Positions 5,578-57,592 of a stretch of 64,000 nt of DNA are shown here, one piece after another. Each line of letters begins with the position of its first letter. Position 1 is the first letter of the stretch. Made by a program: the position numbers and the translations under genes. The notes beneath the pieces were generated by a model. It was not told the DNA's origin, searched no databases, and worked only from the letters and a program-made list of their open reading frames with translations. The stretch is from an uncultured Candidatus Saccharibacteria bacterium (GTDB lineage Bacteria; Patescibacteriota; Minisyncoccia; Phycocordibacterales; UBA9973), in contig CAZWJU010000002.1 of the NCBI GenBank assembly GCA_964634365.1, positions 32,069 to 96,068 of the forward strand. The letters are read 5' to 3'.

Positions 5578-7584
5578 TTATTTTACCATTTTCAAGAATT
5601 CAGACTCCTCTATTACAGAAACCCCAAGCTTCTTCGCTTCATTGAGTTTTGATCCAGCACTCTCCCCTGCAAGCACGAAGCCTGTCGCTTTTGATACAGA
5701 TCCAGAAACTTTACCACCATTTTCAATAATTATTTTCTTTGCTTCTTCGCGAGAAAGGGTCGGGAGTGTTCCTGTTAGAACAAAAGTTTTGCCTGTAAAC
5801 TTCCCTACTGCTTTTTTATATTCTTTTGGTTTTACACCATTATCCAATAGTTTTTGTATAAACTTCTGATGATATGAGTCAGACAAATATTCCAAAATAC
5901 TCTCGGTCACAGCTGGGCCAATATTTTCTATCTCGTCCAAATCAGATTCTTTTGCATTTAAAAACTTCTTGAGTGTGCCGAAGTGTCCTGCCAAGTCCCG
6001 TGCAGTTTCTTCTCCAACATGGATTATCCCAAGCGATACAATAAATCTATCAAGTGTCGGGTTTCTCCTCTCTTTTATATTACTCACAATATTACTTGCA
6101 GACTTATCTCCAAATCTCTCAAGCCCTGACAAGTCAGCTTCGGTGAGAATGAAGAGATCTGCTCCGTCAGTTATCAATCCCTCGTCCTGAAGTCGCTCTA
6201 TTATCTTTGGACCAACAGTATAGATATCGAACGCATTTACGAAGTGAACAAGACCCCGGGAACTCTTGGCCTCACAGCGTTTGTTTGTACAGTAAAACGC
6301 CACACTTTTTCCACCCTGACCTTCTTTCTTCTCTACTTCCCCTCCACAGATAGGACACACACTCGGCATCTTAAAACTTTTTTCTTTTCCTGTGCGTAGA
6401 CTTTTCAATACTTCTACAACTTCGGGTATAACATCCCCTGCTTTTTGTATAACAACAGTGTCACCTATTTTTATATCGAGTCTTTCTATCTGATCCATGT
6501 TGTGAAGAGTCGACTTGGAAACAGTCGAACCAGAAACAAGAGTCGGTTCAAAATGTGCAAGTGGTGTCAAAACTCCTGTGCGTCCCACCTGAACTGTTAT
6601 GTCGAGAACCTTTGTGGTGGCGCGTTCTGCTGGATATTTAAATGCACACATATAGCGTGGGGCTTTGCCGACTATACCTAATCTCTCTTGCAAATCTGTC
6701 TCATCAATAGATATAACTATACCGTCTGTTCCAAAAGGTAATTTTTCTCTTATCTTTTTTATTTCTTCGATAAAAGATTCTACTTCTTTTAAGTTTTTGC
6801 ATTTCTTCTCATGAACTGAAACTGGAAAACCGAGCGAGACAAGTAGTCTATGTTCGTCTGAATGTTTTTTTATATTTTTTTCATAATCTGCCGATAGTTC
6901 TGCTATGTCATATGCAAAAAAAGATAGGTGACGCTCCTTTACTACACTAGGATCAAGCTGACGAACTGAACCAGCAGAAGCGTTGCGAGTGTTTGCAAAC
7001 TTGGGTAGGCCGAGCTTTTCATTTTGTTTGTTTAACTTTTCGAGAACGTCTTTTGACATAACTATCTCTCCGCGAACTTCTATCTTTTTAGGAGAATCTT
7101 TTGGGAGAGTAAGTGGTATGTCAGTTATCATTTTTATATTTTCTGTTATGTTTTCTCCGACAAATCCATCTCCTCGAGTTCCTCCATAAACAAGTTTTCC
7201 ATTTTCATAAAGCAAAGTAACAGCTAGACCGTCGAACTTTAGCTCGGCAAAATATGTGGGAGTTTTTCCAGGAATAAGTTTTAGTGCCCTTTTTTCCCAA
7301 TCAGCGAGTTCTTCATAAGAAAAAACATCTGCTAGTGAGGTCATGCGAGAGCTGTGAGTTATCTTTTCAAACTTGGGAAGAGGAGCGCCTGCTACACGAG
7401 AAAGCGGGTCATCTTTTACACGAAACTCTGGGAATTTGTCTTCTAGAAGTCTAAGCTCTCTGGTTAGAGAATCATAAACATCGTCAGTTACAGAAGGGTC
7501 GTTTTCTACATGATAGCGAAAACGGAGACTTTGTATCTCCTCGCGCAACTTTTCTATTCTGTTTTTTGCTTCTTTTTTATCCAT
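5578..7584 (-). CDS. ligA: NAD-dependent DNA ligase
   Basis: Adenylation-domain motifs, a CPICGGEV zinc finger, HhH region and C-terminal BRCT. The likely start is the ATG at 7584 (MDKKEAK...), because the ORF-track extension to 7605 runs into a terminator hairpin. Confidence 0.9.
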   Translation of the reverse strand: MDKKEAKNRIEKLREEIQSLRFRYHVENDPSVTDDVYDSLTRELRLLEDKFPEFRVKDDPLSRVAGAPLPKFEKITHSSRMTSLADVFSYEELADWEKRALKLIPGKTPTYFAELKFDGLAVTLLYENGKLVYGGTRGDGFVGENITENIKMITDIPLTLPKDSPKKIEVRGEIVMSKDVLEKLNKQNEKLGLPKFANTRNASAGSVRQLDPSVVKERHLSFFAYDIAELSADYEKNIKKHSDEHRLLVSLGFPVSVHEKKCKNLKEVESFIEEIKKIREKLPFGTDGIVISIDETDLQERLGIVGKAPRYMCAFKYPAERATTKVLDITVQVGRTGVLTPLAHFEPTLVSGSTVSKSTLHNMDQIERLDIKIGDTVVIQKAGDVIPEVVEVLKSLRTGKEKSFKMPSVCPICGGEVEKKEGQGGKSVAFYCTNKRCEAKSSRGLVHFVNAFDIYTVGPKIIERLQDEGLITDGADLFILTEADLSGLERFGDKSASNIVSNIKERRNPTLDRFIVSLGIIHVGEETARDLAGHFGTLKKFLNAKESDLDEIENIGPAVTESILEYLSDSYHQKFIQKLLDNGVKPKEYKKAVGKFTGKTFVLTGTLPTLSREEAKKIIIENGGKVSGSVSKATGFVLAGESAGSKLNEAKKLGVSVIEESEFLKMVK

Positions 7585-7593
7585 AATGGAAAA

Positions 7594-7614
7594 GTACAGG
7601 AACATATCCTGTAC
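7594..7614 (-). terminator. Intrinsic terminator hairpin (GTACAGGA acata TCCTGTAC) after the pilus gene block
   Basis: 8-bp perfect stem followed by a T-run on the minus strand, immediately downstream of the PilX-like gene stop. Confidence 0.5.
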
Positions 7615-7679
7615 TTATGAGTATACCCTATTATATACCGACACGAGAAATATTCACTCAAAAAAGCGAACCAGCATAT

Positions 7680-8279
7680 TTACAGAGCGCCGGTGCCGGT
7701 ACCATCTCCTTCAGCACCTCCTTCTGGTGGAGGAACCTCGCCTCCACCCGCATCACCTCCTCCGTCTACTGCAACAGCCACTGGGTTTGGATATTTTACT
7801 TCGAGCAATCTTTCGACAATGCGATTTGTATCGAAAGAATCAAGCTGTGCACAATCTATATTGTAACCCTGAGATATTATACGTGTGTAGCTAGTACCGT
7901 CTATATCAAAATTTTTATTTACCTCAACAGTCGCACAACTACGAGGAGACAGATCAAATTCAAATGTAAACAAGGTTGGAGAAATATCTTCAAAATTAGC
8001 GACCATACCATCTCTACACTCTGGGACTATTGGAGAAACTGGATTGAAAGCATTTTGTTTTAAATCATAATACAAAGCACATTCACTACCAGCGTCTGCT
8101 GCATAAAAAGCTAAGTTAGATTCTTTTGCTGAAACAGTAAGCTCGGTTTCTTTTAAGGCTATATTGAATATACCTGTTGCAAGCACTAGTACGATAACAG
8201 ATATCAAAACTGTAAAAAGCACAACAAAACCATCTTGCTTGCTACCTGTCTTTTTTATTTGTTCGATAAATATTTTCAT
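7680..8279 (-). CDS. Pilus minor component, PilX-like (N-terminal hydrophobic helix, Gly/Pro/Glu-rich C-terminus)
   Basis: N-terminal QDGFVVLFTVLISVIVLVLATG resembles a pilin-like helix without canonical Glu5; last gene of the pseudopilin block. Confidence 0.45.
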   Translation of the reverse strand: MKIFIEQIKKTGSKQDGFVVLFTVLISVIVLVLATGIFNIALKETELTVSAKESNLAFYAADAGSECALYYDLKQNAFNPVSPIVPECRDGMVANFEDISPTLFTFEFDLSPRSCATVEVNKNFDIDGTSYTRIISQGYNIDCAQLDSFDTNRIVERLLEVKYPNPVAVAVDGGGDAGGGEVPPPEGGAEGDGTGTGAL

Positions 8280-8282
8280 ATT

Positions 8283-8894
8283 TTATATTGCACTTACATG
8301 TGGCTGCCAATCCATCAAAATATTTTGATAAGTAATAGTCTGCTCTGACAAACCTTCGTACCAAGTTACTTTACTAGTAACCAAAACATCGTCTGCTAAA
8401 GTTTCATTAATCGGCAAAACAAATATTGTTCTAGTAAAAGGTGAGGCTACTGATCCACTAGGAAGATCACATGCATCACTCTGGTCGTATCCAAAATATC
8501 CAGAAGTCTCTGAGTACGGAATATTGCAAGTAGACCCAGTACATGCGCATACATCTAAAGTAGACGGGTCTATGTTGCAACCAGCTGTCCCACTACAAGT
8601 ATTAATATTTGATAAGAAAATATCCCATCCGGCACCAGAAGGGTCGGATATAACTGAAGTATCTCTAATATTACGAACTGTCTCTACACCCTCTTGGGCT
8701 AGATACGAAGCTGTAAGTCTAGACTTTGCTAGAGTTGTGTTTGATACACCACCACTTGCGACAACTATCAGAAAAACAATCGATGAAGAAAATATAGCCA
8801 AGGCCACAAGAGTTTCTACTATTGTAAAACCAGAATTTTTACTTGCTATTTTATTTATTTTAAAAAGTTTGTTTTGCATATATTTAAAAATCAA
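8283..8894 (-). CDS. Type IV pseudopilin (prepilin-type N-terminal cleavage/methylation domain)
   Basis: SGFTIVETLVALAIF class III signal (G/FTxxE). Confidence 0.7.
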   Translation of the reverse strand: MIFKYMQNKLFKINKIASKNSGFTIVETLVALAIFSSSIVFLIVVASGGVSNTTLAKSRLTASYLAQEGVETVRNIRDTSVISDPSGAGWDIFLSNINTCSGTAGCNIDPSTLDVCACTGSTCNIPYSETSGYFGYDQSDACDLPSGSVASPFTRTIFVLPINETLADDVLVTSKVTWYEGLSEQTITYQNILMDWQPHVSAI

Positions 8895-24255: not shown

Positions 24256-24342
24256 GGAGACGTGTCTGAGTGGTTTAAGGTACCTCCTTGCTAAGGAGGC
24301 GAGCTGTAAAAAGCTCCGTGAGTTCGAATCTCACCGTCTCCG
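24256..24342 (+). tRNA. tRNA-Ser (anticodon GCU), type II with long variable arm
   Basis: GGAGACG...anticodon loop TTGCTAA...variable arm CGAGCTGTAAAAAGCTCCG...T-arm GTGAGTTCGAATCTCAC...CGTCTCC-G. Confidence 0.85.
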
Positions 24343-24362
24343 CCGTTTCCGTTTCAATATAT

Positions 24363-24449
24363 GGAGGATTGGGTGAGTGGTTGAAACCAGCAGTTTACTA
24401 AACTGCCGACCTGTAAAAAGGTCCGTGAGTTCGAATCTCACATCCTCCG
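24363..24449 (+). tRNA. Type II Ser-like tRNA with unusual anticodon loop TTACTAA (apparent anticodon ACU)
   Basis: GGAGGAT acceptor, 3-bp D-stem, anticodon stem GCAGT/ACTGC, long variable arm, T-arm identical to tRNA-Ser(GCU), discriminator G. Confidence 0.6.
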
Positions 24450-24453
24450 CAAA
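24432..24453 (+). repeat. att-like direct repeat copy 1 (tRNA 3' end, cgaatctcacatcctccgcaaa)
   Basis: 22-nt sequence repeated exactly at 24573-24594 and with one deletion at 26275-26293. An inverted 11-mer TGCGGAGGATG lies at 24473-24483. Confidence 0.7.
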
Positions 24454-31257: not shown

Positions 31258-31331
31258 CCACCCTTAGCTCAGTTGGTTAGAGCACAGAGCTTATACCTCT
31301 GGGGTCCTTGGTTCGAATCCAAGAGGGTGGA
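31258..31331 (+). tRNA. tRNA-Ile with UAU anticodon
   Basis: CCACCCT-TA-GCTC AGTTGGTTA GAGC A CAGAG CTTATAC CTCTG GGGTC CTTGG TTCGAAT CCAAG AGGGTGG A; perfect cloverleaf. Confidence 0.8.
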
Positions 31332-31339
31332 CATGACAG

Positions 31340-47002: not shown

Positions 47003-47087
47003 AGTCGCATCGTATCATAAAAAACACTTTTATAAAAATAAAACCTAGAACTAAGTTCTAGGTTTTATTTTTCAAATTTTTATATAT

Positions 47088-48364: not shown

Positions 48365-48808
48365 TTATTTGCGGATCTCTCCTCCAGTTGCAGCTATCTT
48401 AGATTTTGCTGACTCTGAAACTAGTATTTTAGAAAAGATTATTTTCTTAGTTATTTCACCTGTACCTAATAGTTTAACTTTTGGTGTAACACCACGAATG
48501 CGTTTTACAAGTTTCTTTTCAAGCAGTATAGCTGGCGTAACAATATCTCCTGCTTTGAAATTTGCCTCGATCGCAGATAGATTTACAACTGCTGGTTTAA
48601 GCTCGAAACTAACGAAACTGTTCTTGCCACGACCACGAAGTTTAGGAAGTTTTTTTATGATATCTCGAATATGAGGGCGTCTTTTATTACCTGCGCGTGC
48701 TTTCTGACCCTTTGTTCCGCGTCCAGAAGTTTTACCACGAGTACCACCACGGCCAACTTGAGCGCTTTTCTTGTTTGGTGTATTTCTTTTTAGTTTGTGT
48801 ATTTGCAT
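48365..48808 (-). CDS. rplO: 50S ribosomal protein L15
   Basis: Gly/Arg/Lys-rich N-terminus, L15 family. Confidence 0.9.
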   Translation of the reverse strand: MQIHKLKRNTPNKKSAQVGRGGTRGKTSGRGTKGQKARAGNKRRPHIRDIIKKLPKLRGRGKNSFVSFELKPAVVNLSAIEANFKAGDIVTPAILLEKKLVKRIRGVTPKVKLLGTGEITKKIIFSKILVSESAKSKIAATGGEIRK

Positions 48809-48819
48809 AAAGTTTTAAA

Positions 48820-49461
48820 TTATTGCTGTACGTATGATTGAACTTCTTCTACAGGAGCAACACGTTTCTTTGTAGCAATAAGTGACAAAGCTTTTAAAGT
48901 AGCTTGCGCGTTGTTTAATCTATTTTTACTTCCTGAATGAATTTTACCTGTAACATTCTTTAGGCCAGCTAATATTACGATATCACGAACAGTACTACCT
49001 GCAACTATTCCGTGTCTTTTGTTTGGAGAAACCTTAATTCTTGAACTTGCAAATTTAGCTTCAACTTCATGAGGGATAGACATTTCTTTAGTTGTCTTGA
49101 TTGTGATCATGTTCTTTCTAGCATTCTTTAGAGCTTTAGATATAGCAAGTGCTGTATCTGTAGCCTTTCCTGTACCAAAGCCCACTGAGCCTTTTTTGTC
49201 TCCTATAACCATAGCTACAGAAAAACTCATACGACGCCCTCCTGCTACCACACGAGTAACACGACGAATATCAATAATCTTTTGATCAAATTCTGGTTTT
49301 GGTCTAGAAAAACCTCCACTTCTTCCACCAGAGCGATTACCTCCGCGACCTCTTGGTGCTCCACGAGATCCGCCTTCCCTTTTTTGAGGAACAACAGCTT
49401 CTTTGACAGATTCTGTTGTTACAACTTCAGGTGTTATGTTTTTGTTATCTTCTGTATCCAT
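48820..49461 (-). CDS. rpsE: 30S ribosomal protein S5 (with Gly/Arg-rich N-terminal extension)
   Basis: RVTRVVAGGRRMSFSVAMVIGDKKGSVGFGTGKA core. Confidence 0.9.
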   Translation of the reverse strand: MDTEDNKNITPEVVTTESVKEAVVPQKREGGSRGAPRGRGGNRSGGRSGGFSRPKPEFDQKIIDIRRVTRVVAGGRRMSFSVAMVIGDKKGSVGFGTGKATDTALAISKALKNARKNMITIKTTKEMSIPHEVEAKFASSRIKVSPNKRHGIVAGSTVRDIVILAGLKNVTGKIHSGSKNRLNNAQATLKALSLIATKKRVAPVEEVQSYVQQ

Positions 49462-49826: not shown

Positions 49827-50360
49827 TTATGCAGATTTCTTACCTTGTTTTCGGCGAATAGTTTCTGTGTCATAGCGGAATCCTTTACCCTTATATGGTT
49901 CAGGTTTTTTCATCATGCGAATTTTAGCTGTAAATTGACCTACGAGCTCTTTGTCTATTCCAGATACAGTAATAACATTTTTTTCAGCAGTAATAGTGAG
50001 ACCTGTTGGTATTGGAACAACTACAGGATGAGAGAATCCTAGTGCTAGGTTTAGATTTTGACCAGATACTTCTGATTTAAATCCAACTCCTTCCAGGATC
50101 AATTTCTTTGAAAACATTTCTGTCACACCAATAATCATATTCTCAACATGAGAAGCATATGTTCCCCATAATGCTCTACTGAATACCGTATCTTTTCTTG
50201 GAGAAAAAGTTATTACTCCGTCTTCGATCTTTATTTCTATATCATCTCTGAAATTTTTTGTGATAGTTCCTTTTGGACCTGTAACTGTGCAAAGACCATC
50301 AACGCAATTGACTGTTACTCCAGATACGATTTTAAGTTGTTTTTTTCCTACGCGTGACAT
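49827..50360 (-). CDS. rplF: 50S ribosomal protein L6
   Basis: [11 protein letters not shown]... start at 50360 (ORF-track extension overlaps rpsH). Confidence 0.9.
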
Positions 50361-50373
50361 AAATCTTTTGTTA

Positions 50374-50760
50374 TTACCACATTTTAAATAACACTTCTCC
50401 TCCGACCAATTGTTTCTTTGCATTTACTCCAGACAATATACCTTTTGGAGTTGATAGAACAACGATTCCAAAACCATTCTTTATTGGTCTGATATCTTTT
50501 GATCCCATATACATTCTGCGAGAAGGCTTTGAAATTCTAGAAACATCACTTATACGAGGAGAACCATCTCTGTAAGAAAGCTCTATTTCAAGAGTTGGGT
50601 GAGTTTTCTCAGTCTTCTTTGTAACTGATTTTATATACCCTTCATTAACCAAGCATTCTAAAATTGCTAGTTTTATTTGTGAAAAAGGAACACTAACACT
50701 CTCGTGCTCTGCACGATTAGCATTCTTTAACTTTATTAACATGTCTGCGATTGGATCCAT
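50374..50760 (-). CDS. rpsH: 30S ribosomal protein S8
   Basis: MDPIADMLIKLKNA... canonical S8. Confidence 0.9.
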   Translation of the reverse strand: MDPIADMLIKLKNANRAEHESVSVPFSQIKLAILECLVNEGYIKSVTKKTEKTHPTLEIELSYRDGSPRISDVSRISKPSRRMYMGSKDIRPIKNGFGIVVLSTPKGILSGVNAKKQLVGGEVLFKMW

Positions 50761-50786: not shown

Positions 50787-50972
50787 CTACCAGCTAGATT
50801 TGCGGATACCTGGAATTTTACCTTCATTTGCAAGCTCTCTAAAGCAAATACGACAAACTCCGAAATCACCCATAAAACCTCTTGTACGACCACAACGAAA
50901 ACATCGATTTACTTTTCGAGTACTAAATTTTGGTTTTCTATTTGAGCGTGCGACTGTTGATTTTTTAGCCAT
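50787..50972 (-). CDS. rpsZ: 30S ribosomal protein S14 type Z (zinc-binding, 61 aa)
   Basis: CFRCGRTRG...CRICFRE zinc ribbon. Confidence 0.9.
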
Positions 50973-51164
50973 ATATATAAAAGCCTTAAATATAAGGGAA
51001 TATCTCGTGTCTTTTCTTAAATCAGCTCAAAAATGAGCAAACTCAAGGAGAAACACGGATTCACCAAATATCTATGGGCTTCGCCTATACTAGCAAAATA
51101 AAGATTTTGTGTCAAATAATATAAAATCCCACACGCTTTATGTAGGATTTTATATATTTTATAT

Positions 51165-51542
51165 TTATGCAGAAGCTAGATCTTTCTTTAGATCTTCGAT
51201 TTTGCCTTGCGTTACAGCATCATCAACCTCTTTAACTTGTGCCTCAAGAGCATTCATTTCTTCTTCAAAGAATTTAACGCTATTGTCTAAATCCTTTTCT
51301 ACTTCATCTATATCAGCCTCAGCCTTAGAAACAATTGATGCAACTTCAGGATTTTTTGGATCAGCGACTATTCCCGCCTCGGCAAAAGACTTATCGAGTT
51401 CACTATCAATTAACGCTTGAACCTCGTCGAGTACTGCCGGAGTAATAGCTCTTGATGTTAGCAGAGAGATTGCTTTTGCCTTTTGTTCTGGTGGAAGAAC
51501 ATCAGAATTTTTTATTTCATTTATATAATCATCTAGTGTCAT
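51165..51542 (-). CDS. Hypothetical acidic coiled-coil protein inserted in the ribosomal cluster
   Basis: 125 aa, highly acidic, heptad-rich; followed by its own terminator hairpin (51118-51150). Confidence 0.5.
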   Translation of the reverse strand: MTLDDYINEIKNSDVLPPEQKAKAISLLTSRAITPAVLDEVQALIDSELDKSFAEAGIVADPKNPEVASIVSKAEADIDEVEKDLDNSVKFFEEEMNALEAQVKEVDDAVTQGKIEDLKKDLASA

Positions 51543-51544
51543 AA

Positions 51545-52570
51545 TTATATAGCTACTTGTGAATTATTTGTTACTACGACTTTGCTTAGACCCTCTCTCA
51601 AAGAAACAAGTTTCTCAGCTTTTTCTTTTATTGCATTTAGTCTAGCCTGCTTAGCTTCTTCGAGGTTTCCTGCAACCATCGAATCTTTAGCAATTTCTTT
51701 GTCTAACTCTCTCATTTTGTAAGCTATAATCTCGTCTTTTAGTCTCATTTTTATTCTGTTAACTTCAGCGCTAGCAAAATTGCCTGCCTCAGTCATAAAA
51801 TTATTAAGTCTTCTAAACTGATTGAATATACTGTCCTGCATTCTCTCAAGCCCTTCTTTTGTTCTTTCTGCTTTATAAGCGGCAACTGAAGCTATCAAAA
51901 CAGCTTTCTCTTCTGTAAATCTCTTTGTTGCTTTTGCTTTTTCAGCAATCCAATTACCTAAACCAACTACACCACCCTCTATTTTATCAAAAGCTTTATC
52001 ATACATATTGTCTACAAAACCAATACCTTTATCTAGCTTATTTGATCCAGCAGTTAGCCCAGCTTCTATAATCTTGTCTGTAGACAAAACAGCAATGGAA
52101 ATATTTTTTGGTATTTCATATCCAAAATCTTTTATTTTTCTAAAGAAATTACCTAATTTGCTACCCACACTTGAAATACGAGTTTTTGCATTTTCTTTTA
52201 TACCGGAAATTTTCTGACTTATTATTTCATATCTTTTTTCGCCAACTGAAAGAATACTTTCTGTTTTATCTGTCGGCATAGTAGCAGATTCTAGGGCTGC
52301 ACTCGGTATTGGATTTTCTATATTTAAAGGTTCTTGAGCTTGTGTATACGCTTCTATATTTTTTGGTGACTCTTCTTCAGCCTTATTTTCGCTGATACTA
52401 GAAATGCGTTTATTTATATTTTCTAGATTTTGCTTTGCAATTAAAAGTTCGGACTCTTTTTGAGCAACTGCTTGTTCTGCGGCTGACTTCTCAGCCAAAA
52501 GAGCTTGTAGTTCAATAGGGCTAATATTTTCGTTTGTATCAACTGAATTAATATCCATATTTATATTCAT
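51545..52570 (-). CDS. Hypothetical long coiled-coil protein inserted in the ribosomal cluster
   Basis: ~340 aa from an internal Met (MNINMDIN..). The ORF-track N-terminus runs through the rplE terminator hairpin and is not coding. Confidence 0.5.
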   Translation of the reverse strand: MNINMDINSVDTNENISPIELQALLAEKSAAEQAVAQKESELLIAKQNLENINKRISSISENKAEEESPKNIEAYTQAQEPLNIENPIPSAALESATMPTDKTESILSVGEKRYEIISQKISGIKENAKTRISSVGSKLGNFFRKIKDFGYEIPKNISIAVLSTDKIIEAGLTAGSNKLDKGIGFVDNMYDKAFDKIEGGVVGLGNWIAEKAKATKRFTEEKAVLIASVAAYKAERTKEGLERMQDSIFNQFRRLNNFMTEAGNFASAEVNRIKMRLKDEIIAYKMRELDKEIAKDSMVAGNLEEAKQARLNAIKEKAEKLVSLREGLSKVVVTNNSQVAI

Positions 52571-52604
52571 AAGCAATATTGTATACCGTTTATGATATAA
52601 AACA

Positions 52605-52632
52605 AAATAGAAAAAATCCCCAGAGGGGATTT
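52605..52632 (-). terminator. Intrinsic terminator (AAAAATCCCC aga GGGGATTTTT) directly after rplE
   Basis: Read directly. Confidence 0.65.
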
Positions 52633-52649
52633 TTTCTTTCAAAATGTTT

Positions 52650-53189
52650 TTATTTCTTAAATGGAAAACCTAGGAGTGTAAAGAATTCTAGTGCTTCTTC
52701 TTTTGTTTTTGCACTTGTTACTATTGTAACAGCGAGACCAAAAACATCTTTTAGCTCTTCGTCCCCTGTTTCTGGGAAAATAGTGTGTTCACGTATTGGC
52801 AGAGTTAGATTTCCAATGCTGTCTACAATCTTTGTATCAACACCTCGAAAGTCTTTCATACGAGGAATAGCAACGTTTGTAAGCTTATCTAAAAATCCAT
52901 ACATGCGAGCTCCGCGTAGAGTAACCATAACTCCAACTGGATCACCTTGTCTAACTTTAAAACTAGCAATAGATTTCTTTGCGCTCTTTGTTGCAGGCTT
53001 TTGACCTGTGATCTTTGCAAGACGTCCGATTATAAATTCGTTACGATTTTTATCTTTTTTAATTCCACTACCTGTACCAGACGCAACTATAACTTTCAAT
53101 AGACGAGGTGATGCAAGGCGGTTTTTGTAACCACGCTTAGCTTTCATAATCTCGTATGCTTTTTCTTCTTTTATCTTTATTGGTTCCAT
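52650..53189 (-). CDS. rplE: 50S ribosomal protein L5
   Basis: Canonical L5, 179 aa. Confidence 0.9.
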   Translation of the reverse strand: MEPIKIKEEKAYEIMKAKRGYKNRLASPRLLKVIVASGTGSGIKKDKNRNEFIIGRLAKITGQKPATKSAKKSIASFKVRQGDPVGVMVTLRGARMYGFLDKLTNVAIPRMKDFRGVDTKIVDSIGNLTLPIREHTIFPETGDEELKDVFGLAVTIVTSAKTKEEALEFFTLLGFPFKK

Positions 53190-55832: not shown

Positions 55833-56183
55833 TTATTTCTTAGTTGCTTTACTGTCTGAAGTAGCCTTTGCAGCTTTAGCCTGAGCGATTTCTGTCTCTT
55901 TTTGTTTCGCCTCAAGTTCCTTTTGCATCTTACCTCCGTGTCTAATAAACTTTCGAGTTGGAGAAAATTCACCTAATCTGTGACCAACCATATCTTCTGT
56001 AACGAGTACTTCTATGTGACTTTTACCATTATGTACACCAAAATTAAATCCAACCATCTCTGGAGATATCTGAGAAGCTCGTGACCAAGTCTTAATAACC
56101 CCTGTAGAAATAGGGTTTTTGCCCTCAATCTTCTTGAGGAGTCTTTCATCAACGTATGGTCCTTTTTTAAGTGATCGTGTCAT
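55833..56183 (-). CDS. rpsS: 30S ribosomal protein S19 (with Ala/Lys-rich C-terminal extension)
   Basis: [16 protein letters not shown]... canonical core. Confidence 0.9.
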
Positions 56184-56340
56184 GTGTTAGTAAAGAGTGA
56201 TTAGGCATAAAGGAATATGACACAGGTGTTTCCTGTTAACTATTCGCTTATTGCTACCCACTGTTCAATTAAAATAGCTCTCTAGGAGCGTTGAAACTAT
56301 ACTAGCAAATACGCCAAAAATGTCAAATTTTACATATTAA

Positions 56341-56366
56341 AATCCCCGAATTTGGGGATTTTACAA
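56341..56366 (-). terminator. Intrinsic terminator (AAAATCCCCGAATTTGGGGATTTT) after the inserted 103-aa gene
   Basis: Read directly. Confidence 0.65.
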
Positions 56367-56372
56367 GTTTAT

Positions 56373-56684
56373 TTAAATGAATTTTGCAAGATTGCTTATA
56401 TCTCCATCGAGATTTGGCAATAATTGTTCTTTGGAACTACTGTTGAAAAATAAGAAATTTGCACCTTTTTTGTTGGCCCAGGCCATCATATTTCTCACTT
56501 TATGCTCCAAATAAAGCAAGGGTTCATTGATGAAAATTATTATTTCGTCTTGATTTAAGTCACTATGACTCATGTTTTCTTCAAGATTCAACACTGCTAC
56601 AGAATGACCTTTTTGAATCAAATTCTCCTTGATTCTCTGAGTTACTTTTGACTCAACTTGTACCGGAACTAAGATTATCTTCAT
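56373..56684 (-). CDS. Hypothetical small alpha/beta (flavodoxin/Rossmann-like) protein inserted between rplB and rpsS
   Basis: 103 aa with alternating beta-alpha pattern (KIILVPV.., HSVAVLNL, EIIIFINEP, ANFLFFNSS); no family assigned. Confidence 0.45.
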   Translation of the reverse strand: MKIILVPVQVESKVTQRIKENLIQKGHSVAVLNLEENMSHSDLNQDEIIIFINEPLLYLEHKVRNMMAWANKKGANFLFFNSSSKEQLLPNLDGDISNLAKFI

Positions 56685-56746
56685 TTCGTTTAATTTTGCC
56701 TCAATCTAACACAAAACAAAATCCGGGGCAAACCCGGATTTTGTTT

Positions 56747-57592
56747 TTAACCTTTTCTATTTTTTCCTGTCTTACGACGAGATACGATGAGATGGTTTGA
56801 GTATTTTTTAGGTGTACGAGTCTTTCGTCCTCCTGTAACTTTACCCCACATAGTTTTTGGTCGGCGAGTTCCGCGTCCTTGGCGTCCTTCTCCTCCTCCG
56901 TATGGGTGATCAACTGGGTTCATCACAGATCCACGGACTGTTGGGCGAATACCCTTCCAGCGACTGCGTCCTGCTTTACCTATAGATTCTAGAGCGTGTT
57001 CACCATTTGAAACTTCCCCTATACAAGCGAAACATTCTTCTGAAACTTTACGAATTTCAGTTGAAGGCATCTTTAGGTGTGTTTGACCATCTGAGTTTGC
57101 AACTACTTGAGTAAACACTCCTGCGCCACGAGAAATTTTAGCACCACCTTTTGGTTTTAGTTCTATGTTGTAGACAAAAGTACCTACAGGTATTTTTCTC
57201 AAAGGCAGTCTGTTTCCGGTAGTTAAAGGAGCACTTTCAGATACAATAAAAGTATCTCCTACTTTCATGCTCTTTGGAGCAATAACATATCTTTTTTCTC
57301 CGTCTTTGTATACAGCAAGAGCGATAAAAGCTGTTCTGTTTGGATCGTACTCGATTGAAGCAATCTTAGCAGGAATATCAAATTTATTGTAAAGAAAATC
57401 TACATCTCTAAATAAACGTTTGTGACCTCCTCCTTTGTGGCGAGTTGTAATACGTCCTTGATTGTTTCTTCCAACAGAACGCTTGCGACCATATACGAGA
57501 GATTTTTCAGGCTTTGCGCCAGAAAGCAACTCACGATATGGAACCGTTGTCATGTGTCTGCGTGATGGAGTTGTTGGTTTATATGATTTCAT
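56747..57592 (-). CDS. rplB: 50S ribosomal protein L2
   Basis: 281 aa, canonical L2 blocks (GRNNQG, HKGGGHKR). Confidence 0.95.
   Translation of the reverse strand: MKSYKPTTPSRRHMTTVPYRELLSGAKPEKSLVYGRKRSVGRNNQGRITTRHKGGGHKRLFRDVDFLYNKFDIPAKIASIEYDPNRTAFIALAVYKDGEKRYVIAPKSMKVGDTFIVSESAPLTTGNRLPLRKIPVGTFVYNIELKPKGGAKISRGAGVFTQVVANSDGQTHLKMPSTEIRKVSEECFACIGEVSNGEHALESIGKAGRSRWKGIRPTVRGSVMNPVDHPYGGGEGRQGRGTRRPKTMWGKVTGGRKTRTPKKYSNHLIVSRRKTGKNRKG

Follow-up and report, generated by a model that had tools for sequence, protein, structure and literature searches.

A variable gene gap and a structured rpsZ leader RNA at the rplE-rpsZ junction of a candidate phyla radiation bacterium

Organization of the rplE-rpsZ region

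We analyzed a 64,000-nucleotide (nt) stretch of DNA, hereafter called the window (contig CAZWJU010000002.1 of GenBank assembly GCA_964634365.1, positions 32,069 to 96,068 of the forward strand), from an uncultured bacterium of the Patescibacteriota, with a focus on the place in its ribosomal protein gene cluster where rplE and rpsZ are separated by additional genes and regulatory features. All coordinates refer to the whole 64-kb window, and the ribosomal cluster and all elements described here lie on the minus strand. Read along that strand, the order is rplE, a terminator, an open reading frame (ORF) of 341 amino acids (ORF1), an acidic ORF of 125 amino acids (ORF2), a hairpin, a promoter and leader, and then rpsZ. 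A first-pass annotation of this DNA had reported that two coiled-coil protein genes and two terminators interrupt the cluster at this point. The interruption is real, and all of its elements were recovered within a few bases of the positions originally assigned to them.

The rplE gene (uL5; 52650-53189) matches Pfam Ribosomal_L5 and L5_C, has 98% identity to the copies in the related loci L001 and L002, and closes the rpsS...rplE transcription unit. It is followed by a terminator-like hairpin (52609-52637) that was detected by a terminator scanner and consists of a 13-bp stem with five G-C pairs, a 3-nt loop, and the U-rich tail AUUUUGUUUU. The fold has a predicted free energy of -17.5 kcal/mol (z = -4.4 versus shuffles). 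This hairpin has the features of an intrinsic (Rho-independent) terminator, at which transcription is predicted to end, in agreement with the annotation of a terminator after rplE.

ORF1 (51545-52570) encodes 341 amino acids from a conserved ATG codon and is preceded by a promoter-like site (52578-52605; TTGTTT, 16 nt, TACAAT) that falls below the scanner threshold and whose -10 element ends 7 nt before the ATG. Although their flanking terminator sequences differ, the window, L001, and L007 have identical TTG and (A)TACAAT elements (in the arrangement TTGnnT-16-TACAAT) and an identical ATG context, which suggests a weak promoter that might yield a leaderless mRNA. A TTG start codon for ORF1 at 52642 was considered and rejected, because it runs into the terminator and the relatives start at the conserved ATG. 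ORF2 (51165-51542) encodes 125 amino acids with an isoelectric point (pI) of 4.1 and starts 2 nt past the ORF1 stop codon, a spacing with which the two genes are probably translationally coupled. The ORF1-ORF2 unit is closed by a hairpin at approximately 51114-51160, which was recognized as inverted repeat I1 and by its fold (-18.7 kcal/mol, z = -6.8). Its tail, UUUUAUAUUAUUU, has an interrupted U-tract that lies partly inside the stem, and the hairpin was not listed by the terminator scanner. The second terminator originally annotated here is thus present as a strong hairpin, but it is less canonical than the first. Both L001 and L007 carry a hairpin and TTTT at the same position after ORF2.

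The downstream unit is preceded by a promoter (51087-51115; TTGACA, 17 nt, TGcTAGTAT with an extended -10 TG), which the scanner matched at 10 of 12 positions plus the TG. Approximately 115 nt of untranslated sequence, including a structured leader at 50988-51071, separate this promoter from rpsZ (50787-50972), the first gene of the unit, which encodes a zinc-type uS14 protein of 61 amino acids (Pfam Ribosomal_S14, E = 4e-22). The second gene is rpsH (uS8; 50374-50760), which was taken from the ORF listing and whose orthologues in L001-L007 match Pfam Ribosomal_S8.

A recurrent gap between rplE and rpsZ in related genomes

We fetched 80 loci from species-level relatives by means of their L5 proteins (60-78% identity); these genomes are labelled Paceibacteria, Nomurabacteria, or Parcubacteria. 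For the 62 genomes in which both genes reside on one locus, the gap between L5 and S14 has a minimum of 135, a median of 834, and a maximum of 4257 nt, as compared with medians of 35 nt for the gap from L24 to L5 and 31 nt from S14 to S8. Four further loci have no S14 gene within 5 kb. The gap is only 135-300 nt long in 18 genomes and there holds just a terminator, a promoter, and the leader. Because these genomes have the boundary features alone, the split exists without an inserted gene, and ORF1 and ORF2 therefore occupy a pre-existing gap between operons and are not the cause of the split. The first-pass annotation had raised the possibility of an insertion that split the operon into separately terminated units. 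The sequences do point to separately terminated units, but with cause and effect the other way round.

The boundary features recur even where their sequences do not. A hairpin with a T-run is present no more than 90 nt past the rplE stop codon in 73 of 82 loci, and the sequences of these hairpins are unrelated among loci, such that the feature is conserved and the sequence is not. On the other side of the gap, the pattern TTGAC[A/T]...TGnTAnnAT was found 13-29 nt upstream of the leader in all non-redundant loci (58/58). This element has the near-consensus sequence and extended -10 expected of a sigma-70-type promoter and is predicted to function as one.

The larger gaps contain between one and six ORFs, which for the most part bear no relationship from one genome to the next (62 of the 102 gap ORFs are singletons). 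Pfam matches among them include pilin-like N_methyl proteins, nucleotidyl transferases, NUDIX proteins, guanylate kinase, a HigB/HTH pair (toxin-antitoxin), a sigma factor, and Schlafen/AlbA. Among the loci examined, ORF1 and ORF2 are found at the rplE-rpsZ site only in L001-L007, and searches with ORF1 and ORF2 profiles of the cargo ORFs from 60 relatives revealed no hidden homologues at the same site. The cargo at this gap really differs from lineage to lineage.

A conserved and covarying RNA leader upstream of rpsZ

An alignment of 56 distinct rpsZ leader sequences revealed a conserved, covarying long hairpin of approximately 80 nt (84 nt in the window), for which we modelled 18 base pairs. 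The modelled pairs are formed in 96.2% of cells, and 14 of the 18 show compensatory changes, which occur in 172 cells. None of 500 shuffles reached the observed values, and when the pairing register was slid the covariation score fell from 0.496 to at most 0.138. A covariance model built from this alignment (model R1) gave one strong match per locus, scoring 56-82 bits and invariably placed immediately 5′ of rpsZ; its single match in the 64-kb window is the leader at 50988-51071 (72.2 bits), which has a predicted folding free energy of -28.4 kcal/mol (z = -6.0). The most conserved nucleotides are UCUCCUU ... AAGAAA, which form a UCUCC/AGAAA internal loop, together with a CUUAAG helix.

Some members of the alignment depart from this architecture. 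In L015, L016, L018, L020, and L050 the apical CUUAAG helix (alignment columns 28-66) is replaced by another conserved module (CUUCUUUGCCCG...GGGAAGG...AAGAA), so that the tip of the leader is swapped in this subset and the base is constant. Separately, L011, L015, L017, L019, L024, L050, L053, and L054 carry extra inserts of 40-120 nt between the leader and the rpsZ ATG. Several of these are short palindromic repeats of the CTAGT/ACTAG type or G+C-rich hairpins, and the inserts might be miniature repeat elements or attenuators. We also considered whether the conserved CUCCUU of the leader pairs with the rpsZ Shine-Dalgarno sequence. This candidate was rejected, as a complementary stretch close to the start codon is missing from most relatives.

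Resemblance of the leader to the S8-binding site of 16S rRNA

In Escherichia coli, S8 represses the spc genes by acting at rplE, and it is the only known spc regulator. The structure of the E. coli operator has been reported to be narrowly gammaproteobacterial (PMC3616713), and a 2024 review describes spc regulation outside E. coli-like bacteria as unknown (PMC10931766). The S8 site of 16S rRNA, as read from E. coli rrsH, comprises A596 G597 U598 C599 and G639 A640 U641 A642 C643 U644, and S8 recognition is determined by the 597-643-641 triple, by A642, which is invariant, and by the 596-644 pair, whose identity varies (PMC4176348).

The lower helix of the rpsZ leader has the form 5′-RAUC / GAUAUY-3′ and contains a UA bulge of 2 nt and two A nucleotides that never vary. 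In the window this S8-site-like core corresponds to 51058-51061 (AAUC) and 50999-51004 (GAUAUU). No variation is seen in alignment columns 13 (U), 14 (C), 80 (A), and 82 (A), and conservation is 90% or higher in columns 79 (G) and 81 (U); the invariant A of column 82, at window position 51000, is the equivalent of A642. The leader thereby reproduces U598, C599, G639, A640, U641, and A642, as well as the 2-nt asymmetry of helix 21. The pair formed by columns 11 and 84 is G-C in 42 sequences and A-U in 14, and is broken in none, whereas columns 12 and 83 form an A-U pair in 55 sequences and a G-C pair only in L055. In that one natural variant the core reads AGUC/GAUACU, which is identical to nucleotides 596-599 and 639-644 of E. 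coli 16S rRNA. A further variant, L064, changes the equivalent of U641, and this change is tolerated only in the S8-like register.

We propose that the leader is a candidate S8 autoregulatory operator outside the Gammaproteobacteria, because its core matches helix 21 and because rpsH, the second gene of the unit, encodes S8, the protein that acts as the spc repressor in E. coli. The rpsZ-rpsH-... transcript would then open with an approximately 80-nt stem-loop that carries a helix-21-like recognition core. S8 in excess over 16S rRNA would bind this leader and repress the rpsZ-rpsH-... unit, as it does at E. coli rplE. Like the E. coli spc operator, the leader is an mRNA helix within the spc gene set that has an asymmetric internal loop, a helix-21 core, and a covarying 596-644 pair, and in both cases S8 is encoded just downstream. 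The differences are also considerable. The E. coli operator overlaps the rplE start within a longer operon, whereas the leader described here is the rpsZ 5′ untranslated region at the start of a separate transcript and does not overlap the start codon. The 597-643 pair is G-C in E. coli but A-U in 55 of the 56 leaders, and the leader possesses both an extra bulge by G639 and a large conserved upper helix and internal loop that have no rRNA counterpart. The two RNAs share no similarity at the level of sequence or covariance model, and the leader belongs to a phylum of the candidate phyla radiation (CPR), in contrast to the narrow gammaproteobacterial distribution reported for the E. coli structure (PMC3616713).

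Several observations weigh against S8 as the ligand. The proposal depends on the resemblance of a motif of approximately 10 nt that was spotted after the fact. Model R1 yields no match to helix 21 when searched against E. coli 16S rRNA, and the link to S8 is therefore made through the core motif only. Rfam likewise contains no match for the rpsZ leader, either at the gathering score or at E <= 1, and no 16S rRNA gene is present in the window. In the window approximately 27 nt separate the core from the rpsZ ATG. Overall the distance between the leader and the start codon ranges from 25 to more than 100 nt, with long inserts in some relatives, and occlusion of the start site in the manner of E. 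coli does not obviously apply here. Neither the UCUCC/AGAAA loop nor the CUUAAG helix has a helix 21 counterpart, and an additional variable bulge adjoins G639, all of which argues that the E. coli mechanism has not simply been reproduced here.

The alternative that survives best is that the leader is a real structure but not an S8 operator. It might instead bind uS14, uL6, uL18, uS5, or uL15, or might act independently of protein as a stabilizing stem-loop, a processing site, or an attenuator. This possibility would account for the placement of the most conserved nucleotides (UCUCCUU ... AAGAAA) outside the helix-21 motif, for the lack of overlap with the rpsZ start codon, and for the failure of the covariance model to recognize helix 21. 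Moreover, between the leader and the ATG some of the relatives possess another small G+C-rich hairpin with a T-rich stretch behind it, which could be an attenuator. Set against these points are the match of the asymmetric UA bulge, the invariant A, and the flanking U-A and C-G pairs to the known S8 determinants (PMC4176348), the exact E. coli rRNA core in L055, and the position of the gene for the only known spc regulator as second in the unit. On balance we regard a leader with some other ligand or function as rather unlikely. Whichever ligand applies, a covarying RNA represented by 56 sequences offers a testable handle on spc regulation outside E. coli and its relatives, a question that the 2024 review called open (PMC10931766).

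ORF1 and ORF2 as a portable gene pair

The C-terminal domain of ORF1 defines a family of proteins of approximately 260-310 amino acids, with 36 representatives at E <= 1e-3 in an exhaustive profile search and motifs that are shared across the whole domain. When a reciprocal profile was made from the remote members alone, ORF1 was the only match among all window ORFs (E = 1.8e-25). In every family locus recovered, the ORF1-like gene is directly followed by a gene for an acidic ORF2 homologue of approximately 121 amino acids, and alignment of ORF2 with this partner by hhalign gave a probability of 98.2% (E = 3.9e-14). Thirteen loci elsewhere (L088-L100), annotated as "hypothetical protein" in Ca. 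Nomurabacteria, carry the gene pair with no ribosomal protein gene within 6 kb. Their neighbours differ, with genes for SMC, RNase III, NusB, and RNase R in one locus and for H+-PPase and YgjP in another. Module loci of the Nomurabacteria type have their own promoter and terminator, and the family is absent from most of the Paceibacteria examined. The ORF1/ORF2 pair is a self-contained, portable bicistronic operon. In the genus-level clade of the window, this cargo would consist of the weak promoter, ORF1, the coupled ORF2, and the terminator hairpin, placed in the rplE-rpsZ gap.

The first-pass annotation had also suggested that the two proteins are lineage-specific, ribosome-associated factors. 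Spelled out, this idea holds that they act on the ribosome or in its biogenesis and that their position was selected for co-expression, for example by read-through of the rplE terminator. The position is conserved across the genus-level clade, purifying selection on ORF2 is as strong as that on L5 and S14, a basic helical domain with an acidic partner is compatible with binding to RNA or the ribosome, and in one locus elsewhere (L093) the module is near the RNA metabolism genes for NusB, RNase III, and RNase R. However, the occurrence of the pair in Nomurabacteria away from ribosomal genes, at 13 loci with differing neighbours, leaves a ribosome-specific role unsupported. Relatives carry genes for pilins, NUDIX proteins, guanylate kinase, toxin-antitoxin, and sigma factors at the very same site, a promoter of its own and a hairpin at either end insulate the module, and most Paceibacteria examined manage without the family. 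Searches of Pfam, NCBIfam, and the Protein Data Bank (PDB) gave no significant match for ORF1 or ORF2, whether to ribosomal or biogenesis proteins or to any other. We consider a dedicated ribosomal role improbable.

Both ORFs are genuine genes. Independent assemblies in NCBI, ENA, and Logan supplied more than 24 contigs with the order rplE-ORF1-ORF2-rpsZ, which also recurs in CP064973.1, the complete 705-kb genome of a Ca. Pacebacteria member. The synteny comparison that the first-pass annotation had called for thus bears out the gene order, and the recurrence of the same junction in these assemblies and in the complete genome excludes a chimeric contig. Homologues share 50-100% identity for ORF1 and 80-98% for ORF2. 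The ratios of nonsynonymous to synonymous substitution rates (dN/dS), which were calculated by the Nei-Gojobori method and are approximate because synonymous sites are near saturation (dS about 1-1.7), are 0.18-0.26 for ORF1 and 0.03-0.06 for ORF2, as compared with 0.02-0.05 for L5, 0.03-0.05 for S14, and 0.11-0.16 for S8. With such values and with homologues at hand, the concern that the ORFs might be non-coding artefacts is put aside. The GC content along the window shows no discontinuity at ORF1/ORF2, no flanking repeats were found around the pair, no integrase or transposase accompanies the insertion, and PADLOC and PHROG searches of the window proteins gave no match. The orphan-like character of both proteins, which belong to no Pfam or NCBIfam family, and the turnover of cargo at this site among relatives might raise the suspicion of ORF artefacts, of a chimeric assembly, or of foreign or mobile DNA that was inserted recently, but the recurrent junction, an order kept across lineages at such synonymous divergence with low dN/dS, and the lack of any mobility signature make this explanation exceedingly improbable and, as far as sequence data allow, refute it.

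One distant relative with the pair, L007 (metagenome-assembled genome GCA_031972835.1), carries a third gene (7546-8307 in the coordinates of L007; 238-253 amino acids), without a match in Pfam, that separates ORF2 from the rpsZ promoter. In the same genome, rplB is not located upstream of rpsS.

Predicted properties of the ORF1 and ORF2 proteins

ORF1 begins with an acidic long helix (approximately residues 18-61), which a variable acidic linker connects to a basic C-terminal domain that is entirely helical (residues 109-341; 233 amino acids, pI 9.6), and the protein contains no hydrophobic segment. The N-terminal helix is an extension that was gained in the clade of the window. AlphaFold2 (AF2) models are all-helical, with four helices for ORF2 (mean predicted local distance difference test, pLDDT, 75.6). 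The coiled-coil label given to these proteins earlier is fair, with the qualification that a classical single long helix is confined to the N-terminal approximately 60 residues of ORF1. In a 359-amino acid protein from Logan (P0015), a Mur-ligase C-terminal domain occurs together with a copy of the N-terminal helix of ORF1 (residues 249-318); this could be a gene-call fusion across a frameshift, or the helix could be a separately mobile domain.

Database searches place neither protein in a known family. Pfam and NCBIfam scans of ORF1 and ORF2 returned only sub-threshold noise, PDB sequence searches with three profiles found nothing significant, and a Foldseek search of the PDB with the ORF2 model gave nothing below E = 0.6. 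Single members of the ORF1 family have weak matches to YtxH (9e-5), LEA_4 (6e-4), and Apolipoprotein (4e-3). None of 26 members reaches the Pfam gathering score for these families, each of which is matched by at most one member, below the cut-off, and the ORF1 of the window has no match to LEA_4, YtxH, or Apolipoprotein in the Pfam scan. The ORF1 C-terminal domain and its relatives of approximately 280 amino acids resemble LEA_4, YtxH, and apolipoprotein proteins in being all-helical, rich in A, K, E, and G, and repeat-like, but they differ in having motifs of their own (F.KG.ERY..., LSAD, EKT.EGL, and, at the C terminus, ...MAA/VAI) and a small acidic partner gene that is obligate. The weak matches would fit an amphipathic-helix protein, without establishing membership.

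ORF1 and ORF2 would accordingly be cytoplasmic all-helical proteins, the basic domain of ORF1 being distantly LEA/YtxH/apolipoprotein-like. We tentatively picture a stoichiometric heteromer of acidic ORF2 with the basic ORF1 domain that might serve as a structural, scaffold, or protective assembly rather than as a ribosome component, while recognizing that this picture has a somewhat greater chance of being wrong than right. It draws on composition, gene coupling, and sub-threshold family matches; the AF2 model of ORF1 has low confidence (pLDDT 44); and the ribosomal-protein-like constraint on ORF2 would not be predicted for a merely accessory role. All of these points count against it. A conserved pair of uncharacterized Paceibacteria protein families, one of them under such constraint, is worth characterizing in organisms with approximately 700 genes.

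A second break in the cluster and a model for its transcription

The window contains a second break in the ribosomal cluster at 56262-56746 on the minus strand, between rplB (56747-57592) and rpsS (55833-56183). This gap holds a 103-amino acid ORF (56373-56684), which is 41% identical to a 105-amino acid ORF in L001-L004 and for which Pfam and NCBIfam scans gave sub-threshold noise alone, followed by a palindromic terminator (56338-56363) and a promoter (TTGACA-16-TGcTAGTAT; 56299-56326). In relatives (L001-L004 and L008-L087) the gap between rplB and rpsS measures 129-2068 nt, with a median of 690 nt. Both a promoter and a short hairpin leader (ACGAGCUC-NNNN-GAGCUUAUUUAUAUU) are conserved upstream of rpsS, and this hairpin may be a second ribosomal-protein leader. 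Like the rpsZ leader, it has no Rfam family at the gathering score or at E <= 1.

We suggest that the S10-spc cluster of this Paceibacteria (CPR) lineage of ultra-small bacteria is not one operon but is cut at two fixed points, rplB|rpsS and rplE|rpsZ. At the latter, rplE would end in an intrinsic terminator and rpsZ would start a new transcript from a near-consensus extended -10 promoter, and the DNA between the two would be a neutral inter-operon gap that repeatedly takes up unrelated genes. To this explanation as a whole, comprising the re-partitioned cluster, the rpsZ leader as an S8 operator, and the cargo gap, we assign a probability of roughly 0.7. The layout of the boundary and the structure of the leader are shown by the sequence comparisons and are firmer than the part played by S8, which is inferred. 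A more demanding version, in which re-partitioning at two points with a promoter and its own leader at each is class-wide, the rpsZ operator is S8-responsive and previously undescribed, and the gaps are landing pads, we regard as evenly poised between right and wrong.

Ribosomal super-clusters are known to gather accessory genes at operon boundaries and to keep gene order within operons, and the locus described here is similar in both respects. It differs in that the boundaries lie inside the S10 and spc operons of model organisms (at rplB|rpsS and rplE|rpsZ, respectively) and in that each boundary has its own conserved promoter and leader. Our literature searches found nothing on the rpsZ leader or on these breakpoints in Patescibacteria. 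The "most conserved operon" would thus have a different transcriptional layout in a large uncultured radiation. If the model is correct, the rpsZ leader is the first candidate for spc-type autoregulation outside the Gammaproteobacteria, in a CPR lineage, and accessory operons such as ORF1/ORF2 are repeatedly gained and lost beside the most highly expressed genes of the cell. The inserted genes would be ordinary lineage-specific cargo, and the reason that they can sit there is more informative than the genes themselves. For CPR binning or phylogeny that relies on synteny blocks of ribosomal proteins, variable inserts on the kilobase scale are to be expected at both junctions in this clade.

Other features of the window

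The downstream part of the cluster has further peculiarities. The longest ORF for rplF (198 amino acids, 49827-50423) shares 50 nt with rpsH; gene calls in relatives give 177 amino acids, and the true start is probably an internal codon farther downstream. No rpmD gene (L30) is present between rpsE (48820-49461) and rplO (48365-48808), which are 11 nt apart. Loss of L30 has been reported in CPR bacteria, and the missing rpmD fits this pattern. Between secY and adk (47034-47072) there is a perfect 18-bp palindromic hairpin with flanking A-runs and T-runs, which could be a bidirectional terminator and would then close the rpsZ...secY unit. Elsewhere in the window, at 24256-24450 and 31258-31332, ARAGORN predicted two adjacent tRNA-Ser genes (with anticodons GCT and the unusual ACT) and a tRNA-Ile gene (TAT).

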